A stretch of DNA of 64,000 nt from Candidatus Krumholzibacteriia bacterium (GTDB taxonomy: Bacteria; Krumholzibacteriota; Krumholzibacteriia; LZORAL124-64-63), in assembly GCA_014859985.1 (NCBI GenBank), contig JACZKN010000092.1, positions 5,980 to 69,979 of the forward strand, in the 5' to 3' direction. The first letter of the stretch is position 1, and every line of letters begins with the position of its first letter. A model generated the notes under the pieces. The model searched no databases, was not told where the DNA came from, and worked only from the letters and a program-made list of their open reading frames with translations. Both the position numbers and the translations under genes were made by a program. Of the stretch, positions 127-8,924 are shown piece by piece.

Positions 127-327
127 ATGGCGGCGAGGAAGTACAAGTGTCCGAGTTGCGGTAGTTGGGCGGCCGTTAGGATCGTCTACGGGCTTCCGAC
201 GCCGGAGACCTGGGATCTGTCCGAGGCCGGCGAGATCGCGCTCGGCGGTTGCTGCCAGGAGATCGGCGCCCCCGACCGGAGGTGCAAGAAGTGCCGGTTC
301 GAATGGAATTCGAGGAACCATGAATAG
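127..327 (+). CDS. small zinc-ribbon protein (66 aa)
   Basis: CPSCGS...CKKCRF two CxxC pairs; overlaps start of next gene by 8 nt (translational coupling). Confidence 0.4.
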   Translation: MAARKYKCPSCGSWAAVRIVYGLPTPETWDLSEAGEIALGGCCQEIGAPDRRCKKCRFEWNSRNHE

Positions 328-1324: not shown

Positions 1325-1981
1325 TTACAGAACGCTCACGTATAGTCCCCGGTATCCTGGACCCGCGCTGAGTATTATATAATCGGATTCGACGCGTAGA
1401 TTGGCACCCGCATCGATTGTCGCCATCTTTCTGCGAATCGCCGGGCCGGCTGCCCGGAGTAGTAAGCTGTGTACAGGCATGGTCGCTGGACGCACGATCA
1501 AATACCAGCGGTGAATTGGTCCCATGTCGCGTTGGACCTTCGCCAGTTCGGTGACAGCCGCTTCAGCCGGAAGCTCCTTGCGTATGTGACGAAAGATGGG
1601 CAAATCATCGACGACAAAATATTGTGCACAAGCCCCCTGAGACGAGAATGATTCAATCGCCTTGCTGCCTTGACGCACGAACCGATATAGCTCGAGCGTC
1701 GGAGGGGCAGATGGAGTGTACTTCACTCCAATTGCCACACGATCCGTCTGCCGAATGGTCTCAATCGCCCATTGGTGGAGGGCCGGCCAGGCAGCTACCG
1801 TAGTCGGAGGCAGCGACAGACCTTGTGCGGCACGGGGCAAGCAGTTGAACCGTATCGACCCGTCCGACCCAAGTCCAAGTTCTAAACCCCATGAGCCCTC
1901 AAGGAGCTGAAGATCCTTAGCGATGGCCACGAACTGGGGGTCGGCCCCAATAGAGGCAAGAGCAGCATCTATACAGTTCAT
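1325..1981 (-). CDS. hypothetical protein, translationally coupled (ATGA overlap) to upstream ATP-grasp ligase
   Basis: 218-aa ORF, no recognisable motifs; start overlaps ATP-grasp stop by 4 nt. Confidence 0.45.
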   Translation of the reverse strand: MNCIDAALASIGADPQFVAIAKDLQLLEGSWGLELGLGSDGSIRFNCLPRAAQGLSLPPTTVAAWPALHQWAIETIRQTDRVAIGVKYTPSAPPTLELYRFVRQGSKAIESFSSQGACAQYFVVDDLPIFRHIRKELPAEAAVTELAKVQRDMGPIHRWYLIVRPATMPVHSLLLRAAGPAIRRKMATIDAGANLRVESDYIILSAGPGYRGLYVSVL

Positions 1982-3012
1982 ACATGCACCGGCGGCGACT
2001 GCAAGATTGTGGCGATTGCGCGGCTAATCGGGAGGCCGGCAAGCTTTTCCGTCCATAGCCACTGTCCGTTTGGGTTCAGATCGAGAAATACAAACTTGCC
2101 GGTGGGCGTCACTGCGAAATCGATGCTCGCGAAATACAGCCCGAGGGATCTGACGAACCGGGTGCATGTCGCCTCCACTTCTTCCGGGAGCGCTATCGCC
2201 CTGTGAGAGACCTCGTCGAAGTTGTACCTCCGATAGTCGTGACGCGTGTCTGGATAGTCCTGTGAATGGATTGCGCACGCGAAGACTTGGTCTCCAACCA
2301 CGGTTGCTCTTACTTCGAATGCCTTAGGAATCCTCTCTTGGACAAGGCATGGTGCGGACTTCCACAAATGGTCGAGGACCAAGTCTTCTTCATTCAGGGG
2401 TTGCGAATATACAGCGTGCCTTCCGGTCGGGTAGTCGATCCATTGACTTCGTTGCAGCTTGAAGATCACGTCTCGGTTGTGATCCTCGTAGAACGCTCGT
2501 GCAAGCGTCACCGATGTCGTGACGAGTGTGTCAGGTATGTTGAACCCAAACCGTGCCGCCAGTTGATACTGGTAGCACTTCCGGTCCAGGGGTTCGTACA
2601 CGTCGCGATCGCACAAAACGAAGCCATCAAAGGCGGTGACAAGCGCCCTGAGGAGTTCGTCACGTTCGGAGACGATGATTCTGTGCTCATCTGAGCTCAC
2701 GCCAGCCGTGGCAGTGTCGGGGTCCTGGATTCTTCGGTGCCATATCGACCGCAAAGCCGTTGACGGTATTACTTCCATTCCAATCTGGATGGACCAACTG
2801 GCGTTTCCGGCTATGTGTTGGAAGCAAGGCTCGTGCTCGAATGGGTACTTGTCCGTATCGATTCGAACGAACGGTGTGCCCTCGTCCTCAAGCCACTCGC
2901 ATACGGCGGTTGCGTGTGGGTCGTCCGAGTAGGTTAGGATGAGAACGGTCAAGCGGGTCTCCCAAGCATACCAAGAAGGTGTTGCGCGGGGAGCATCGTA
3001 CCCGCGGGCCAC
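1978..3012 (-). CDS. ATP-grasp peptide ligase (MdnC/MvdD-like graspetide maturase family)
   Basis: N-terminal LTVLILTYSDDPHATAV..FVRIDTD and C-terminal FVFLDLNPNGQWLW..GLPI fit microviridin-type ATP-grasp ligases. GTG start at 3012 taken from the ORF track. Confidence 0.65.
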   Translation of the reverse strand: MARGYDAPRATPSWYAWETRLTVLILTYSDDPHATAVCEWLEDEGTPFVRIDTDKYPFEHEPCFQHIAGNASWSIQIGMEVIPSTALRSIWHRRIQDPDTATAGVSSDEHRIIVSERDELLRALVTAFDGFVLCDRDVYEPLDRKCYQYQLAARFGFNIPDTLVTTSVTLARAFYEDHNRDVIFKLQRSQWIDYPTGRHAVYSQPLNEEDLVLDHLWKSAPCLVQERIPKAFEVRATVVGDQVFACAIHSQDYPDTRHDYRRYNFDEVSHRAIALPEEVEATCTRFVRSLGLYFASIDFAVTPTGKFVFLDLNPNGQWLWTEKLAGLPISRAIATILQSPPVHV

Positions 3013-3033
3013 GACTTGGCCAAGCCTGACTAG

Positions 3034-3213
3034 CTAGTAGTCGTCGGGCACCCAAACACCGCCGATGGTGCTAGCCGAGGGCCACGTGGCGGCCTGCTCG
3101 CTCCTTGGGATGACGACCGGCGTCGCCTTCCGTCCAGCGAGCGTCTGGGCGGTCTGCTGGACGGCGGGCGGACGATCGGTGGAGCGGTTGGGTTGGGTGT
3201 TGGCGGTGTTCAT
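3034..3213 (-). CDS. candidate precursor peptide (59 aa) for the ATP-grasp ligase: MNTANTQPNRSTDRPPAVQQTAQTLAGRKATPVVIPRSEQAATWPSASTIGGVWVPDDY
   Basis: Hand-translated; absent from ORF track (below 60 aa). ATG at 3213 (minus) preceded by GGGGAGAAcg SD; stop 21 nt upstream of the ATP-grasp start; C-terminus rich in Thr/Ser and Asp (ester donor/acceptor residues). Confidence 0.5.
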   Translation of the reverse strand: MNTANTQPNRSTDRPPAVQQTAQTLAGRKATPVVIPRSEQAATWPSASTIGGVWVPDDY

Positions 3214-3701
3214 CGTTCTCCCCCTAAGTATTCACTTGCGATGAGTTCGCTTGAAGCGTGTGACCATGCGAGCGAGGCGAGTCAATTGAGAAATACGAGC
3301 AAGAAACTGTAGTCCAGAATCACTGGCCTGACCTCTCCCTGCGACAAGCGTTAACCCGCCAACGTGGGAGCAAGGCGGCGGACGAGCGATAGTACCTGCG
3401 AGCAATGCTTGCCCGTGCGAACGATACCAGATTCGACGCCTGTTTTCAAGCAACTTGGCGGTAGGACTTGGCGGTAGGATAGCTGGGTGAGGCCGTGCTA
3501 GCCCCAACTTGACCACAGATCTGCCACCGTGAAGGACTAAGGCGTAGTAGCGTAGATAGTTGCAGCGATATCGGCCGACATCTTGTAGGGGCGACTCATC
3601 GGAGCTAAACAACTATATTAGCTTCACAATTTCGCATTATTCACTGTACAAGTCGGGGCGACCGTGATAGCATACCCCCAGCCAAGAGGAGCTGGCGGCC
3701 C

Positions 3702-3917
3702 ATGCATCTGCGCATTTCCACCAGGAAGAAGGACCGTAAGACCTACCAGTACGTCCAGCTCGTCGAGAGCTTCCGGCGTGACGACGGCGTCCCCAGCCGC
3801 CGGACCGTCGCTAACTTGGGCCGGCTGACCGACCGTGAGATCGCCAACCTGCGCGTTGCCCTGCAGGCGTCGAGGTTGGGGATCACGCTTGAGCTTCCCG
3901 AGAGCGCCGACGATTAG
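3702..3917 (+). pseudogene. IS1634-family transposase N-terminal fragment (remnant)
   Basis: MHLRISTRKKDRKTYQYVQLVESFRRDDGVPSRRTVANLGRL matches the conserved N-terminus of IS1634-type transposases; ORF stops after 71 aa with no continuation; lower-GC scar 3240-3700. Confidence 0.5.
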
Positions 3918-4271: not shown

Positions 4272-5177
4272 TCATTTCACCAAGACCATCCTCTTCGTCT
4301 CGCTGTAGTCGCCGAACTCAAGGCGATAAAAGTAGACGCCAGCGGCTACGCGACGGCCCGCCGTATCTCGGCCTCGCCATACGGCTTCGTTGCGCCCCTC
4401 ATTAACGGTCTCGTTGCCGAGTATAACATCTACCAATCGTCCCGCCGCGTCGAACACCGAAAGGCAGACAACCCCCTGCTCAGTCACGTAGAATGGGATC
4501 GTCGTAGAGGGATTGAAGGGATTGGGGAAACACGGGCGAAGCAGGTCCTTCCCGGCGACCTCGCCGAGTTCACCCGCACTCGACAAACCAAGACCGTATG
4601 CCGTCCAGGCAAACCCACAGTAACCCCATGTCTCGTCACCTGTACTCACCATACGCACCCCCACCTGATAGTCGGGGTGTTCCTCTACTAGGCCGGCGGG
4701 AATCGTCAGAAGCAGCGTAGCGGTCATGACGCCGGGCGTCAGCGGATTCGCGTCGAATCGGAACTCCGCGTCCGTATTGATGTCATATCTTGTATCGTAT
4801 ATGAATACGATTTCATTCGGCTCAGTACCCCCGTCACTGACAACGCCAGCTCCGGTGAGCGGGAAAAAGTTACCTGGGCCGGCTCCGGCGCCATAGATCC
4901 TCAATCGTATTGCATTCGAGGTAGCTCCCGTTGGAGATTCGAGCGCAAGCGCCACGAGTACCCTATCAAGGCCGCCGCCACAGCTCCCGACGCAATATGT
5001 CGTACTCTCCCTGGACGGTGCAAACGACCAGAGCGAGAAGCCATTCCCGCCAGAACATCCACCCGTTCGGACCCAATAGTCCGCGGCATTGACTGCCGGC
5101 CCAGACCCCAACACGCCCACCAGAAACAACATGGCAATTCCGAGTGGACGCAAAGTACCTCGCACTTGCCGCAACAT
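4272..5177 (-). CDS. secreted protein with C-terminal FlgD-Ig/T9SS-like sorting domain
   Basis: Signal peptide MLRQVRGTLRPLGIAMLFLVGVLGSGPAVNAA from ATG at 5177; C-terminal CFPNPFNPSTTIPFYV...GVYFYRLEFGDYSETKRMVLVK motif. Confidence 0.55.
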   Translation of the reverse strand: MLRQVRGTLRPLGIAMLFLVGVLGSGPAVNAADYWVRTGGCSGGNGFSLWSFAPSRESTTYCVGSCGGGLDRVLVALALESPTGATSNAIRLRIYGAGAGPGNFFPLTGAGVVSDGGTEPNEIVFIYDTRYDINTDAEFRFDANPLTPGVMTATLLLTIPAGLVEEHPDYQVGVRMVSTGDETWGYCGFAWTAYGLGLSSAGELGEVAGKDLLRPCFPNPFNPSTTIPFYVTEQGVVCLSVFDAAGRLVDVILGNETVNEGRNEAVWRGRDTAGRRVAAGVYFYRLEFGDYSETKRMVLVK

Positions 5178-5852
5178 GAAGCACCCCGCGTATTCAGGAA
5201 AGTATGCCCCCCAGTGGACCAGGGGACCCAAAATGGTCTGCCACAGGGAAAAGGCTATCACAGATGGAGACACGATCACAAGTCGACGGGCACTTTCGCG
5301 GCATTCTCAGGCAACGACCATTCGAGCTCCCGGTTGTCCAATCTCGAGCGCGTGCCGCGGGCGCGACGGTATCGGCTTCGTCCCAGACGCCCCAAACCTC
5401 ACATTCATACCCCCAATAAGACCAGGCCAGCGGCCGGTATATCATTTAGGGGGATGATAGATACAAAGTCGCCCCTACAACGCTCTCGCAAGCGATTGCT
5501 GCCCAACGATTACACGTTTGGTGTGGTCGAGATTCTGACAACTGCTGGGTCTGAGCACCGCACAAAAACACAGACACAGACTGGTTCAGACAAAAACCGA
5601 CGGCCGTTCTGTTAACCGCGGGCGATTCAGACAGGCACGGTTCTCGCCTCCCACCCTCGCAAAACCCTTTGCCCCCGCGTCTTATAGCGACAAAAAAAGC
5701 AGGCGCAATGCACCTGCCCTCGTTTCCCTATTTGAAAAACTTGGCTCCCCAAACGTAACAGTTCTCGACACCGCCGCCGGCCCGGATGGGCCAAGCCCGA
5801 GGTCTGGTTCCGGATCGTCCATATCGCCCAGGAAGGCGCGGATAGGGCACCA

Positions 5853-6311
5853 GTGGCCGCCTACCGCGAACAGACGGTGGAAATCGCCCTGGGGCCCAAG
5901 GGGGCGTTCCAGACCGGGATCGTGGGCGCCCTGAAACGACGGGTGGCGCCTGACCAGACCGTCAACGCCCTGTCGGCCAAGGCCCGGAACCGGAAGCCGC
6001 CCAAGCCTCCCCAGACCCCGAAAGTGGTCGAGCTTCTCAGGACGGCCCAGGAGTGGCGGCGACAGCTCGACGCGGGCGAGGTCACGAACCAGGCCGAAAT
6101 CGCCCGTCGAGAAGGGATCACGCGCGCCCGGGTGACCCAGGTCATGAGTCTGGTACGCCTCGCGCCCGATATCCAGGAATACGTCCTGTCCCTCCCCGAA
6201 ACGGTCCGCCGACCGATAATCACCGAACGCGCTCTGCGGCCCATCGCGCTCCTGGAGACGGCGACCGACCAGAAGACCAGGTTTCAGGAACTCATCTCGG
6301 ACATCTCGTAG
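5853..6311 (+). CDS. DNA-binding protein with ParB/KorB-type HTH
   Basis: EVTNQAEIARREGITRARVTQVMSLVRLAPDIQEYVL resembles the ParB-family HTH; no ParB N-terminal nuclease motif. Confidence 0.4.
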   Translation: MAAYREQTVEIALGPKGAFQTGIVGALKRRVAPDQTVNALSAKARNRKPPKPPQTPKVVELLRTAQEWRRQLDAGEVTNQAEIARREGITRARVTQVMSLVRLAPDIQEYVLSLPETVRRPIITERALRPIALLETATDQKTRFQELISDIS

Positions 6312-6381
6312 AACGCACCCGTGATCAACTGGTGTGCTGAACAGGTTGCACCGCGGCAAATCGTGGGCTATTCTCGCCGAC

Positions 6382-7113
6382 ATGCCAAGATTTGACGACT
6401 TCATCGTATTCGTGGACGAGAGTGGGGACCATTGGATGGCCACCCCGGACCCGAATTACCCGATCTTCGTCCTTGCGTTCTGCCTCTTCAAGAAGAGCGA
6501 CTACTCCCATGTCGCCGTGCCAAAGCTGATCGACTTCAAATTCAAGCACTTCGGACACGACCAGATAGTTCTGCACGAGCGCGAGATCAGGAAATCGAAG
6601 GGTGACTTCAGCATACTCCAAATCGAGTCGGTTCGGGAAGCTTTCCAGCGCGACACAAACCAACTGATAGAAGATTCCCCGTTCACGCTAGTTGCCGGAG
6701 TGATCGACAAGGTCCGACTCCAGAACAACTACGCTACCCCGGAGAACCCGTACCACCTCGCAATGACGTTTGGCCTGGAGCGGATCTACCTTCATCTACA
6801 CAACTTTACGCCAGGAACGGTCTGGTTTGTCTTTGAGGAGCGGGGCAAGAAGGAGGATGCCGATCTGGAGCTGCAATTCCGGCGGGTGTGTGAAACAAAC
6901 GCAACGAGGAATGCGCTTCCGTTCAGAATCCGGTTCGCTTCGAAGGCCTCGAATTCGTGTGGGCTCCAGATCGCTGATCTGCTCGCGCGTCCGATCGGCC
7001 GGCACGTGATGAACCCGACCCAACCGAACAGGGCCTATGAGATCATCGAGCCGAAGTTCAGACGGAATCCACAGGGACGGATTGAAGGCTGGGGGCTCAA
7101 GGAGTTCCCGTAA
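6382..7113 (+). CDS. DUF3800-family protein
   Basis: N-terminal FIVFVDESGD and C-terminal GLQIADLLARPIGRH hallmarks; ATG at 6382. Confidence 0.55.
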   Translation: MPRFDDFIVFVDESGDHWMATPDPNYPIFVLAFCLFKKSDYSHVAVPKLIDFKFKHFGHDQIVLHEREIRKSKGDFSILQIESVREAFQRDTNQLIEDSPFTLVAGVIDKVRLQNNYATPENPYHLAMTFGLERIYLHLHNFTPGTVWFVFEERGKKEDADLELQFRRVCETNATRNALPFRIRFASKASNSCGLQIADLLARPIGRHVMNPTQPNRAYEIIEPKFRRNPQGRIEGWGLKEFP

Positions 7114-7221
7114 AAGCGAAGGGCCCCGACTTTCGCCGAGGCCACAACGCCGACCGAGTATTCCCAGTCCATTTTCACACAGGTTAGGGCTGGCCGGCCC
7201 GGGAGTCAATGGGAAATCGAG

Positions 7222-7953
7222 ATGAAATTGCTAACCGTAGATCAAAACGAGATCGCCACACGGCGGGTGAACGAGGCCATTGAGAAGCGCATAGGCCAGC
7301 TCCGGCTGGACTTGAAAGCCCTGAAGGAAGAGCTGAGTAACCGAGGCCTTCAGCTCGACTCGGGCGTTGCGTATCAGGAGTTCGCTCGACTAGCAGGGAC
7401 CACACTGGATGACCTAATTTGGGGTGCTTGGATGGCCCTACGCGACTTTCTAGGGGAAGTCGATCTCATCGCTCCAACCGGACTCGCCCGCGACGTCCAC
7501 GAGTTTCTTCGCCCGCAGACCGATCAACTTGAGCGTGTCGCCTTGGGGGTCGTCTACGAGAACCTCCACACTCTGAAGGAAGGGAATCCGAAGTACCGTA
7601 ATGAACTCGATCTCGCGCTCAAGAAAGCAATAGGCGATCGCAAACGACAGGTCTGGAACCGCGTCTGTACGGATTCCCGGTTGCTTGAAGAGCGACTAAG
7701 GAAGGAACAGCAAGTAGACGATCGAAGGGAACGACGCGCCGACAGGCGAGCACTCACGACCGCGATCTGGACCGTCGTAGCGACGGTGGTGCTAACAACG
7801 CTTGCCGGCCTTCTATTCAGGCCACGCGGTGAACCGGCTGGAGTCGCTCGACCAGAAAGTATCCAGCAGGTCGAAGTGCTACCAGATACGACATCTGCCG
7901 ATACTGTCGTCCGAGCGCCCTTGGACACAGCGACCGTAGACACGACGCGCTAG
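7222..7953 (+). CDS. coiled-coil protein with C-terminal transmembrane anchor, hypothetical
   Basis: 243 aa; charged helical N-terminal part, TM segment ALTTAIWTVVATVVLTTLAGLLF. Confidence 0.4.
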   Translation: MKLLTVDQNEIATRRVNEAIEKRIGQLRLDLKALKEELSNRGLQLDSGVAYQEFARLAGTTLDDLIWGAWMALRDFLGEVDLIAPTGLARDVHEFLRPQTDQLERVALGVVYENLHTLKEGNPKYRNELDLALKKAIGDRKRQVWNRVCTDSRLLEERLRKEQQVDDRRERRADRRALTTAIWTVVATVVLTTLAGLLFRPRGEPAGVARPESIQQVEVLPDTTSADTVVRAPLDTATVDTTR

Positions 7954-8924
7954 TTCTCCAATAAACGCTTGAGCGACCCGCGAACATCACCGATGTACCT
8001 ACCCGCCGCACCAAGAGCCTGCGACACGAGGATATGCCGTTCGTTCTCCAATTCGCCGACGATGTGGTCGACAAACAGCTGAGGCACTCCAAGATGCCTC
8101 GCTATCTCGTTGGTCTGGCGAAGTCCATCGTTGAGGATCGCGAGGATGACGTTGCGATGGATCTCACTAAAGTTCGGCACATATGCCTCGAAGTAGGTCG
8201 ACCAGCCGTAGTTTGTGACTTGGAAGCTGTCGAGGTTTGGCCCCAATGTAGCGTGAACCTCAACGAGCCCATGGTTCTCTAACACGTCGAGTGTGTCCCG
8301 CAATTCAGCCTCCGGAATGGCCAGGTCCCTGAGGACCAGGCCTGGCTCAACAAGGTACTCGCCTGACTCGACCATGAACTCGCACGAGTACTTGAACACT
8401 GCGCTATCCAGAGAGTTGAGGCCGTAGATGTGGGCAGCGTCCGCGGTCACGTATGCCGGGGGCGGCCCCAGTGGAGGCTTTGGCCGGTGATCGTAGACTG
8501 CGGCAACGATACTCTCGATCGCCTGCGTCGGGTCCTCTAGGTCATCAACCCGCTGCCAGACCGTAGATCGGAGTGGCTCCGGCACGTCGCAACCGTCGAG
8601 AACGACGGGGATGATCCTCGCTCCCTTCTGGATACGGCCAACGACAGCGGCGTTGAGTTCCTCCTTCACCCACGGCTTCGAGACGCTGAACTGCGAGAGT
8701 ACAAGGATCACTGCCGATGCGTTTCGGAGGCCTTCGTTGAAGATCTTATCGACAAGCGAATCGCCTGGAAGGATTTCCCAGAAATCGAGCCATACGTCAA
8801 TACCCCGCTCGCGCAGTTGCTCTGCGAGTCGGAACACGAAACGTTCCTTATCCTCGGAGGCGTGACTCAAGAACACTCTCGGGGCGCGGTCTTTGGTTTC
8901 CATGACACGAATGCTCCTTGTCAC
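7950..8924 (-). CDS. TIR-domain protein with tandem winged-helix-like C-terminal domains
   Basis: RVFLSHASEDKERFV...AVILVLSQFSVSKPWVKEEL is a canonical TIR with the catalytic Glu context; C-terminal repeats LRDLAIPEAELRDTL and LRQTNEIARHLGVPQ look like wHTH. Confidence 0.65.
   Translation of the reverse strand: MTRSIRVMETKDRAPRVFLSHASEDKERFVFRLAEQLRERGIDVWLDFWEILPGDSLVDKIFNEGLRNASAVILVLSQFSVSKPWVKEELNAAVVGRIQKGARIIPVVLDGCDVPEPLRSTVWQRVDDLEDPTQAIESIVAAVYDHRPKPPLGPPPAYVTADAAHIYGLNSLDSAVFKYSCEFMVESGEYLVEPGLVLRDLAIPEAELRDTLDVLENHGLVEVHATLGPNLDSFQVTNYGWSTYFEAYVPNFSEIHRNVILAILNDGLRQTNEIARHLGVPQLFVDHIVGELENERHILVSQALGAAGRYIGDVRGSLKRLLEN

Follow-up and report, generated by a model that had tools for sequence, protein, structure and literature searches.

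The window analyzed here is a 64,000-nucleotide (nt) stretch of contig JACZKN010000092.1 from Candidatus Krumholzibacteriia bacterium, and the system in question is a cassette of three open reading frames (ORFs) between positions 1325 and 3213 that a sequence-only reading had taken for a graspetide-like cluster. The three ORFs that it described are all present at the coordinates in Table 1, and all lie on the minus strand, where a peptide of 59 amino acids (aa) is followed by an ATP-grasp enzyme and then by a 218-aa ORF. The strong Shine-Dalgarno (SD) sequence reported ahead of the peptide is seen on direct reading of the minus strand, which runs GGGGGAGAA-CG-ATG. The peptide had been called unannotated; it was missing from the ORF track used at the time, but GenBank already lists it as a hypothetical protein (MBE0564918.1/IH621_03105). 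Similarly, the ATP-grasp had been described as a 344-aa protein, and an open frame of that length does exist, but the likely product has 324 aa. The start is most likely TTG 2952 rather than GTG 3012, because GGGAGA stands 5 nt upstream of the TTG and because alignments to homologues and to solved structures begin only at residue 21 of the longer ORF; the GenBank entry (MBE0564917.1) is the 324-aa form. The ATGA coupling of the 218-aa ORF downstream of the ATP-grasp could be read directly, the plus strand being TCAT at 1978 to 1981, that is, ATGA on the minus strand, with the ATP-grasp stop overlapping the 218-aa start. Promoter and terminator scans of the locus, as well as RNA folding of the peptide/ATP-grasp intergenic region, gave nothing above chance.

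The ATP-grasp is, judged by its domains and model matches, a graspetide synthetase. Residues 22−130 match the N-terminal MvdD pre-ATP-grasp domain (Pfam PF21068) with 41.2 bits, above the gathering score of 27, and the full length is matched by four NCBIfam models of maturases of ribosomally made, post-translationally modified peptides (RiPPs), namely, TIGR04187 (SAV_5884, 3.5e-59), TIGR04185 (MvdC, 1.3e-56), TIGR04184 (MvdD, 6.7e-53), and TIGR04192 (grasp-with-spasm, 1.1e-28). In the PDB, end-to-end matches were obtained with MdnC (5ig8, 1.4e-39) and CdnC (1.3e-27), as well as AMdnB and MdnB, and the similarity to PsnB is weak (E 2e-6). SAV_5884 is the best-scoring NCBIfam model, yet its 200.6 bits fall short of the cut-off of 350; the equivalog models for MvdC and MvdD give 192 and 180 bits where 425 and 475 are required, and the grasp-with-spasm model gives 100.5 where 230 are required. 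Because every NCBIfam score lies under the curated cut-off of its model, the enzyme falls by these scores into no named subfamily. The microviridin-type hallmarks attributed to it earlier stand insofar as it is a graspetide synthetase with an MvdD pre-ATP-grasp domain, but strictly speaking it does not count as microviridin-type. Family scans of the neighboring ORFs showed no SPASM or PIMT gene near the cassette.

The enzyme also looks catalytically competent. Every residue that is 100% invariant among 120 homologues is kept (K145, P160, K185, Q225, R235, D259, R261, D298, N313, and G316), and at positions conserved in at least 90% of them the only departures are T203S, I300A, and E311D. The D(F/W)R loop reads DYR (D259-Y-R261); a D-x-R loop has been called conserved in graspetide macrocyclases (PsnB preprint). 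Were the protein instead a ligase of the RimK/glutathione-synthetase type with some other substrate, and the 59-aa ORF a chance frame, one could point to a weak match to the RimK model TIGR00768 (E 1.9e-9; 37.3 bits, below the cut-off of 143.4) and to databases that label some relatives "RimK-type ligase-like". The RiPP-maturase matches, however, surpass this one by about 50 orders of magnitude and extend over the full length, an MvdD-specific pre-ATP-grasp domain is present, and distantly related taxa share the small ORF in both its sequence and its place, as described below. The maturase scores, the MvdD domain, and the conserved precursor effectively refute the RimK/glutathione-synthetase reading, to which we attach a nearly negligible probability; the enzyme does not group with ligases of that kind.

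The 59-aa peptide ends ...ATWPSASTIGGVWVPDDY and contains neither a PFFARFL leader motif, whose absence had already been noted by the sequence-only reading, nor a TxKxPSD-type core. Its own core recurs directly upstream of the ATP-grasp in three other loci (L001, L085, and L120), giving the clade consensus TWPSA[S/C]T[I/V][G/K]GV..DD[Y/F]. In L001, which is the contig of the related enzyme P0003, a 64-aa ORF adjoins the enzyme upstream and ends ...VIPESVDMATWPSACTIKGVPACDDF, to be compared with ...VIPRSEQAATWPSASTIGGVWVPDDY in the window (pairwise E 8e-10). A profile made from these two sequences recovered a third peptide, P0124, from 5.8 billion proteins with an E of 2.7e-19; its contig (L120, 603 bp) holds the peptide and then the beginning of an ATP-grasp (MVLIFTYTDDPHAKEVI). 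The fourth peptide came from a scan of GTDB genomes and belongs to a cultured flavobacterium, Yeosuana marina JLT21 (L085), where the precursor, with the core GTWPSACTIKGVPVADDF, ends ...HEMGTWPSACTIKGVPVADDF and abuts the ATP-grasp WP_166962098.1. The contig of another relative, P0002 (JGI 3300078620, 5,005 bp), is known from gene calls alone, which place an 84-aa gene at the precursor position. The same core is found in every locus with upstream DNA available, and homologous loci do carry the small ORF. Because of the L001 match and the profile match, the peptide ORF is not a chance frame, and on this conservation it is a real precursor.

Alignment of the four peptides of the window's clade with 10 precursors of a sister family described below shows which core residues are held. 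Across these 14 precursors three residues never vary (G52, D57, and D58), and T49 occurs in 13; only Ser or Thr is seen at position 46, and position 48 has Cys in 10 and Ser in 4. The earlier remark on the window's peptide was that its C-terminus is rich in Ser/Thr and Asp, residues of the kind used for cross-links. No Lys is conserved among the 14, and for this reason no lactam is expected. The window's leader carries LAGRK, its version of the clade motif [L/I]P[L/I]G[R/K].

We read the cassette as a compact graspetide (omega-ester peptide) operon that runs from precursor to ATP-grasp macrocyclase to accessory protein and works as follows, with a probability of roughly 0.8. Graspetide synthetases use ATP to turn an Asp or Glu carboxylate into an acyl phosphate, which is then attacked by the side chain of a Ser, Thr, or Lys (PMC13097080; PsnB preprint). 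In the window the 59-aa peptide would be translated, and the 324-aa enzyme would hold its LAGRK-bearing leader with the pre-ATP-grasp domain and then spend ATP in phosphorylating D57 and D58 at their side-chain carboxylates. Attack of core Ser/Thr hydroxyls on the acyl phosphates would give two macrolactones (−36 Da), two being predicted because there are two acceptors. The rings are expected to be nested, an inner one joining T49 to D57 and an outer one joining S48 or S46 to D58, with a turn containing the invariant G52 between the donors, S48-T49 (or S46), and the acceptor pair D57-D58. Nesting is favored because adjacent donor and acceptor pairs around a Gly turn resemble the TTxxxxEE hairpin of plesiocin. 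We infer this ring chemistry and topology from the conserved donors and acceptors and from the known class.

The closest ATP-grasps are P0002 (45% identity) and P0003 (39%). The enzymes of the window, P0002, P0003, and P0009 are mutual best hits and form one clade in a neighbor-joining tree of 111 enzymes, which was drawn without bootstrap. The sister clade in this tree comprises 32 loci, almost all of them groundwater contigs of the Candidate Phyla Radiation (CPR) and metagenome-assembled genomes of Woesearchaeota/Nanoarchaeia. Its precursors end ...[C/S]T[W/F][R/K]G[V/I]P[T/L][I/V]DD[W/F/Y] and have leaders with F[A/S]E[Q/M][F/Y]LE, a motif that is not in the window's leader. Precursors of this type stand upstream of the ATP-grasp in L015, L024, L027, L028, L034, L037, L043, L054, L068, L080, L084, and others, and the one in L080, which ends ...LTLPSASTFKGVPLLDDF, bridges the TWPSA-type and sister-type motifs. 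Downstream in the sister loci lies a protein of about 210−225 aa with a GEIHGTKEIP motif (GEIHGT(K/Q)E) and a weak Tiki/ChaN match (PF04187, 6e-5), a candidate leader peptidase; in L001 its homologue sits upstream of the precursor instead. No Tiki-like sequence was found anywhere in the 64-kb window (best tblastn E 6.2).

Position 48 in the 14 precursors, being Cys or Ser only, shows the pattern expected of a nucleophilic donor. As a speculation for the sister family, the Cys that 10 of the 14 have at the place of S48 in the window might donate to a thioester (thiolactone) linkage formed in nature; the literature consulted mentions only non-native thioesters (PMC13097080).

Several observations weigh against the operon as we propose it. 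The number of rings and their nested topology are the most likely ones, and they rest on conservation and analogy. In the 14-precursor alignment a near-invariant leader Glu has become Thr in the window's peptide, and near-invariant Pro54 has become Trp, with a Pro at position 56 instead; because of these replacements, recognition or cyclization could differ or be impaired. Family scans found no transporter or recognizable peptidase adjoining the cassette. The other points concern the 218-aa ORF, which is absent from the GenBank record and present only as a Logan gene call. A word-indexed search of 5.8 billion clustered proteins and a full HMMER scan of 1.84 billion representatives both returned only the protein itself. 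In a codon-usage test of all six frames its own comes out ahead, but weakly, at 0.034 bits per codon, whereas typical genes of the window reach 0.316. Comparison with the proteins that follow the ATP-grasp in L001 and L085 gave no significant similarity by BLASTP (E 0.036 to 0.6), an hhalign probability of 0.2%, shuffle z values of 0.4 to 1.9, and a rank of 44 among 2162 sequences (window ORFs plus 2000 shuffles) for the hidden Markov model of these partners.

Nor did other approaches place the protein. It has no family match in Pfam, NCBIfam, or PADLOC, and it shows no PpiC/SurA-like TIGR04500 signal. Structure prediction had been suggested as a way to tell a protease from a tailoring enzyme; an AlphaFold 2 model was obtained, but with a predicted local distance difference test score (pLDDT) of 44 and no confident fold. 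By eye, four collinear blocks can be laid between the 218-aa protein and the L001/L085 family, blocks 1 and 4 being LELGLGSDGSIRFNCL vs LEIGIETELCLKLNVL and YIILSAGPGYRGLYVSV vs YAIIGKENDNYSFYAT, and blocks 2 and 3 being AIGVKY..LELYRFV vs HFGFKV..YEIYPLFV and WYLIVRP vs SYVDGRP; the blocks are statistically insignificant, and because no test reached significance, we claim no homology. A Tiki-like identity was considered for the 218-aa protein and for the L001/L085 partner family, and comparison showed no relation in either case; searches of the PDB with the Tiki-like profile and with the L001/L085 partner profile returned nothing meaningful (best E 0.38, an unrelated protein).

It may therefore be asked whether the system consists of the peptide and the ATP-grasp only, with the 218-aa ORF not a gene at all or an unrelated hitch-hiker, as would suit a protein that has no homologue, family match, or confident fold, is uncalled in GenBank, barely scores as coding at a GC content at third codon positions (GC3) of only ∼0.57, and bears no significant similarity to the L001 and L085 genes in the same position; moreover, several graspetide groups comprise a synthetase and a precursor alone. 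On the other side, 218 stop-free codons at 56% GC have a chance probability of only ∼3e-4 by a rough estimate, and the ORF is probably a gene in view of this long run, the best-of-six frame, and the ATGA overlap with the ATP-grasp stop, which implies translational coupling. In addition, all three relatives in which the slot is visible (the P0002 contig, L001, and L085) have a tightly coupled gene for a protein of 243−261 aa without a Pfam match right after the ATP-grasp; that of the P0002 contig, known from its gene calls, encodes 243 aa, and those of L001 and L085 are homologous (E 9e-22). We thus consider the two-gene system a serious but rather unlikely alternative, and within the three-gene operon the 218-aa product is probably a cassette-specific accessory protein. 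A partner or chaperone like MirC, a leader peptidase, or an immunity protein could each be imagined, with low confidence for any one of them; from gene position only, our guess would be a MirC-like partner/chaperone or a leader peptidase standing in for the Tiki-like protein that the sister family has.

The surroundings of the cassette (Table 1) consist of a convergent UzuA gene on one side and, on the other, ∼0.5 kb of apparently non-coding DNA followed by an IS1634-like fragment. The region at 3232 to 3612 is probably the untranslated/promoter region of the operon, because it scores as non-coding in all six frames and the ORF there has no family match, and the 71-aa ORF beyond it is, from its partial similarity, probably a transposase remnant. 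With TIR, DUF3800, and ParB-helix-turn-helix (HTH)-like genes within 6 kb, the operon looks to be set in a defense or accessory island. GC3 is 0.655 for the ATP-grasp gene, 0.566 for the 218-aa gene, and 0.85 for the peptide gene, compared with 0.82−0.83 for the flanking UzuA and zinc-ribbon genes, and the GC content of the window's first 16 kb is 0.54−0.65 (mostly 0.55−0.62) against 0.635 for the window as a whole. The low GC of this region and the low GC3 of the ATP-grasp and 218-aa genes, together with the flanking UzuA gene, IS1634-like fragment, and defense genes, lead us to conclude that the cassette was probably acquired horizontally.

Table 1. Features of the cassette and its surroundings in the window, and Tiki-like genes in related loci
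Feature	Position	Strand	Remarks
Precursor peptide gene	3034..3213	−	59 aa + stop; ORF, conserved in L001, L085, and L120/P0124; GenBank MBE0564918.1
Presumed leader of 59-aa peptide	residues 1−42	−	contains LAGRK motif
C-terminal core of 59-aa peptide	residues 43−59, nt 3037..3087	−	TWPSASTIGGVWVPDDY
SD of peptide gene	3216..3224	−	GGGGGAGAA, 2 nt before ATG; direct sequence reading
Graspetide synthetase (ATP-grasp macrocyclase), by sequence	1978..2952	−	324 aa from TTG 2952; GenBank MBE0564917.1
SD of ATP-grasp gene	2958..2963	−	GGGAGA, 5 nt upstream of TTG 2952
ATP-grasp open frame, longest form	1978..3012	−	344 aa from GTG 3012
Orphan 218-aa protein gene	1325..1981	−	ATGA overlap at 1978..1981 with ATP-grasp gene; candidate accessory protein
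UzuA (Uzume anti-phage system), 270 aa	320..1132	+	PADLOC PDLC03973, full-length, E 1.7e-57; C-terminus GIY-YIG-like
66-aa ORF, zinc ribbon-like	127..327	+	two CxxC pairs; precedes and overlaps UzuA gene
126-aa ORF upstream of peptide	3232..3612	−	non-coding score in all six frames; no family match
71-aa ORF, like N-terminus of IS1634 transposase	3702..3917	+	one weak tblastn match, 73% over 26 aa, E 1e-3; no Pfam/NCBIfam match
335-aa protein with type IX secretion system type A C-terminal sorting domain	4272..5279	−	TIGR04183, 6.9e-8; fits a host of the Fibrobacteres−Chlorobi−Bacteroidetes (FCB) group
ParB-HTH-like protein	5853..6311	+	within 6 kb of cassette
DUF3800 protein	6334..7113	+	3.5e-15; within 6 kb of cassette
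TIR_2-domain protein	7950..8924	−	Pfam 2.9e-28; PADLOC PDC-S66, bSEFIR, and ThsB-like matches
Tiki-like gene, L001	2032..2691		GEIHGT(K/Q)E motif
Tiki-like gene, L034	4947..5582		GEIHGT(K/Q)E motif
Tiki-like gene, L024	2037..2714		GEIHGT(K/Q)E motif; others likewise

A cassette with this history might be a decaying, non-functional remnant of an acquired graspetide cluster. Such decay would be in keeping with the loss of the near-invariant leader Glu and Pro54 from the precursor, with the absence from the whole window of the Tiki-like gene that the sister family and L001 possess, with the foreign-looking composition of the ATP-grasp and 218-aa genes, and with the IS1634-like fragment 0.5 kb upstream. 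All three frames are nevertheless intact, the enzyme keeps every invariant residue of its catalytic core, and the peptide has a strong SD, a host-like GC3 of 0.85, and all of its donors and acceptors, so that we regard decay as very unlikely and continue to favor a working graspetide operon.

Comparison with known systems places the operon among graspetides and sets it apart from each of them. The microviridin enzymes MdnC/MdnB (MvdD/MvdC, group 1; PDB 5IG8, 5IG9, 7M4S) belong to the same superfamily, with the same layout of a leader-binding pre-ATP-grasp domain and an ATP-grasp domain; they align over the full length at E 1e-36 to 1e-39, share the D-x-R loop, and likewise have their precursor directly upstream. 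In contrast to microviridin loci, the window lacks the PFFARFL leader, the TxKxPSD core, and the conserved Lys, has one ATP-grasp gene rather than two, and has no acetyltransferase. Plesiocin and its synthetase PsnB (group 2; PDB 7DRM) offer the likeness of two neighboring donors facing two neighboring acceptors across a short turn, which suggests nested macrolactones made by a single enzyme. The window's acceptors, however, are Asp rather than Glu, its spacer is 7 residues long (4 in plesiocin) and includes an invariant Gly, its single core lies at the extreme C-terminus whereas plesiocin has four repeats, and the enzymes match at no better than E 2e-6.

The SAV_5884-type enzyme MirB, which makes rosaritide, requires a co-encoded non-catalytic partner, MirC, and the rosaritide linkages are all Ser/Thr−Asp macrolactones near the C-terminus (PMC13097080). 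TIGR04187 is the best model for the window's enzyme, and the MirB/MirC pair gives a precedent for a partner protein, but the score lies below the cut-off, the 218-aa protein lacks a TIGR04500 signal, there is no peptidase-containing ATP-binding cassette transporter (PCAT), and the core motif is different. The CPR/DPANN loci with Tiki/TraB genes have the sister enzyme clade and homologous cores (..P[S/T]x[C/S]T[W/F/I][R/K/G]G[V/I]...DD[W/F/Y]), whereas the window is without a Tiki-like gene and without F[A/S]E[Q/M][F/Y]LE, shows the TWPSA signature, and differs in its downstream gene. L001, which is in the window's own clade, still has the Tiki-like gene of the CPR/DPANN loci.

CPR graspetide branches with Tiki/TraB peptidases have been described (Makarova et al. 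2022, PMC8939145), and new graspetide groups are known to be rich in candidate phyla (Carter et al.). We could not confirm that the loci described here are identical with branches 1−2 of PMC8939145 or with groups 27/42 of PMC13097080, as far as the accessible parts of these sources go. Neither of the core motifs nor the term Krumholz was found in the supplement text of PMC13097080 or PMC8939145, nor was Yeosuana found in that of PMC13097080, all of which is weak evidence of absence, as the tables in these texts are perhaps incomplete. The proposal of a graspetide cluster of an uncharacterized group agrees with these results, no curated subfamily cut-off being reached and the core motifs not being found in the available supplement text of the two large surveys, and the alternative offered with it, a novel peptide-modification system, is not needed.

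Several further relatives were encountered. The partial matches P0012 and P0015 were rejected and represent graspetides of other types, a TPR gene being the neighbor in one and a PCAT gene in the other, and viral contigs contained only distant ATP-grasps at ≤30% identity. Five loci (L006, L007, L023, L025, and L040) encode ATP-grasps at 33−39% identity with precursors of a TxTxT...DxDxD type and a DUF6624 neighbor downstream (PF20329, 5e-23 for L006); co-occurrence with DUF6624 has been reported for graspetide groups 18, 20, 23, and 42, in agreement with these loci. In Y. marina (L085) a sigma-70-like protein with matches to regions 2 and 4 is encoded ∼2 kb upstream of the precursor (1944..2729), and a 423-aa ORF after the cassette on the opposite strand (6832..8103) is integrase-like by eye only.

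One may go further and suppose that the TWPSA cassettes form a new graspetide group whose synthetase depends on a fast-evolving downstream partner of undescribed fold, diverged here beyond recognition, and whose product, encoded in the window between the UzuA and TIR genes, acts in phage defense or microbial conflict and not as a classical secreted protease inhibitor. We hold this extended picture to be quite unlikely and mention it as a speculation.

The cassette is a rare and apparently undescribed branch of the known graspetide class rather than a new kind of system, and it leaves the understanding of that class unchanged. More and more constrained, protease-resistant macrocycles and protease inhibitors are being obtained from graspetides, and with every new core motif a further ring topology and a new enzyme specificity are gained. 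The clade is very rare, with five loci found in distant phyla, one of them in a cultured, tractable strain (Y. marina JLT21), and its coupled uncharacterized gene is of interest as the first partner-dependent graspetide synthetases have newly been reported (PMC13097080). Through this clade the little-studied CPR/DPANN graspetides are linked to free-living bacteria.

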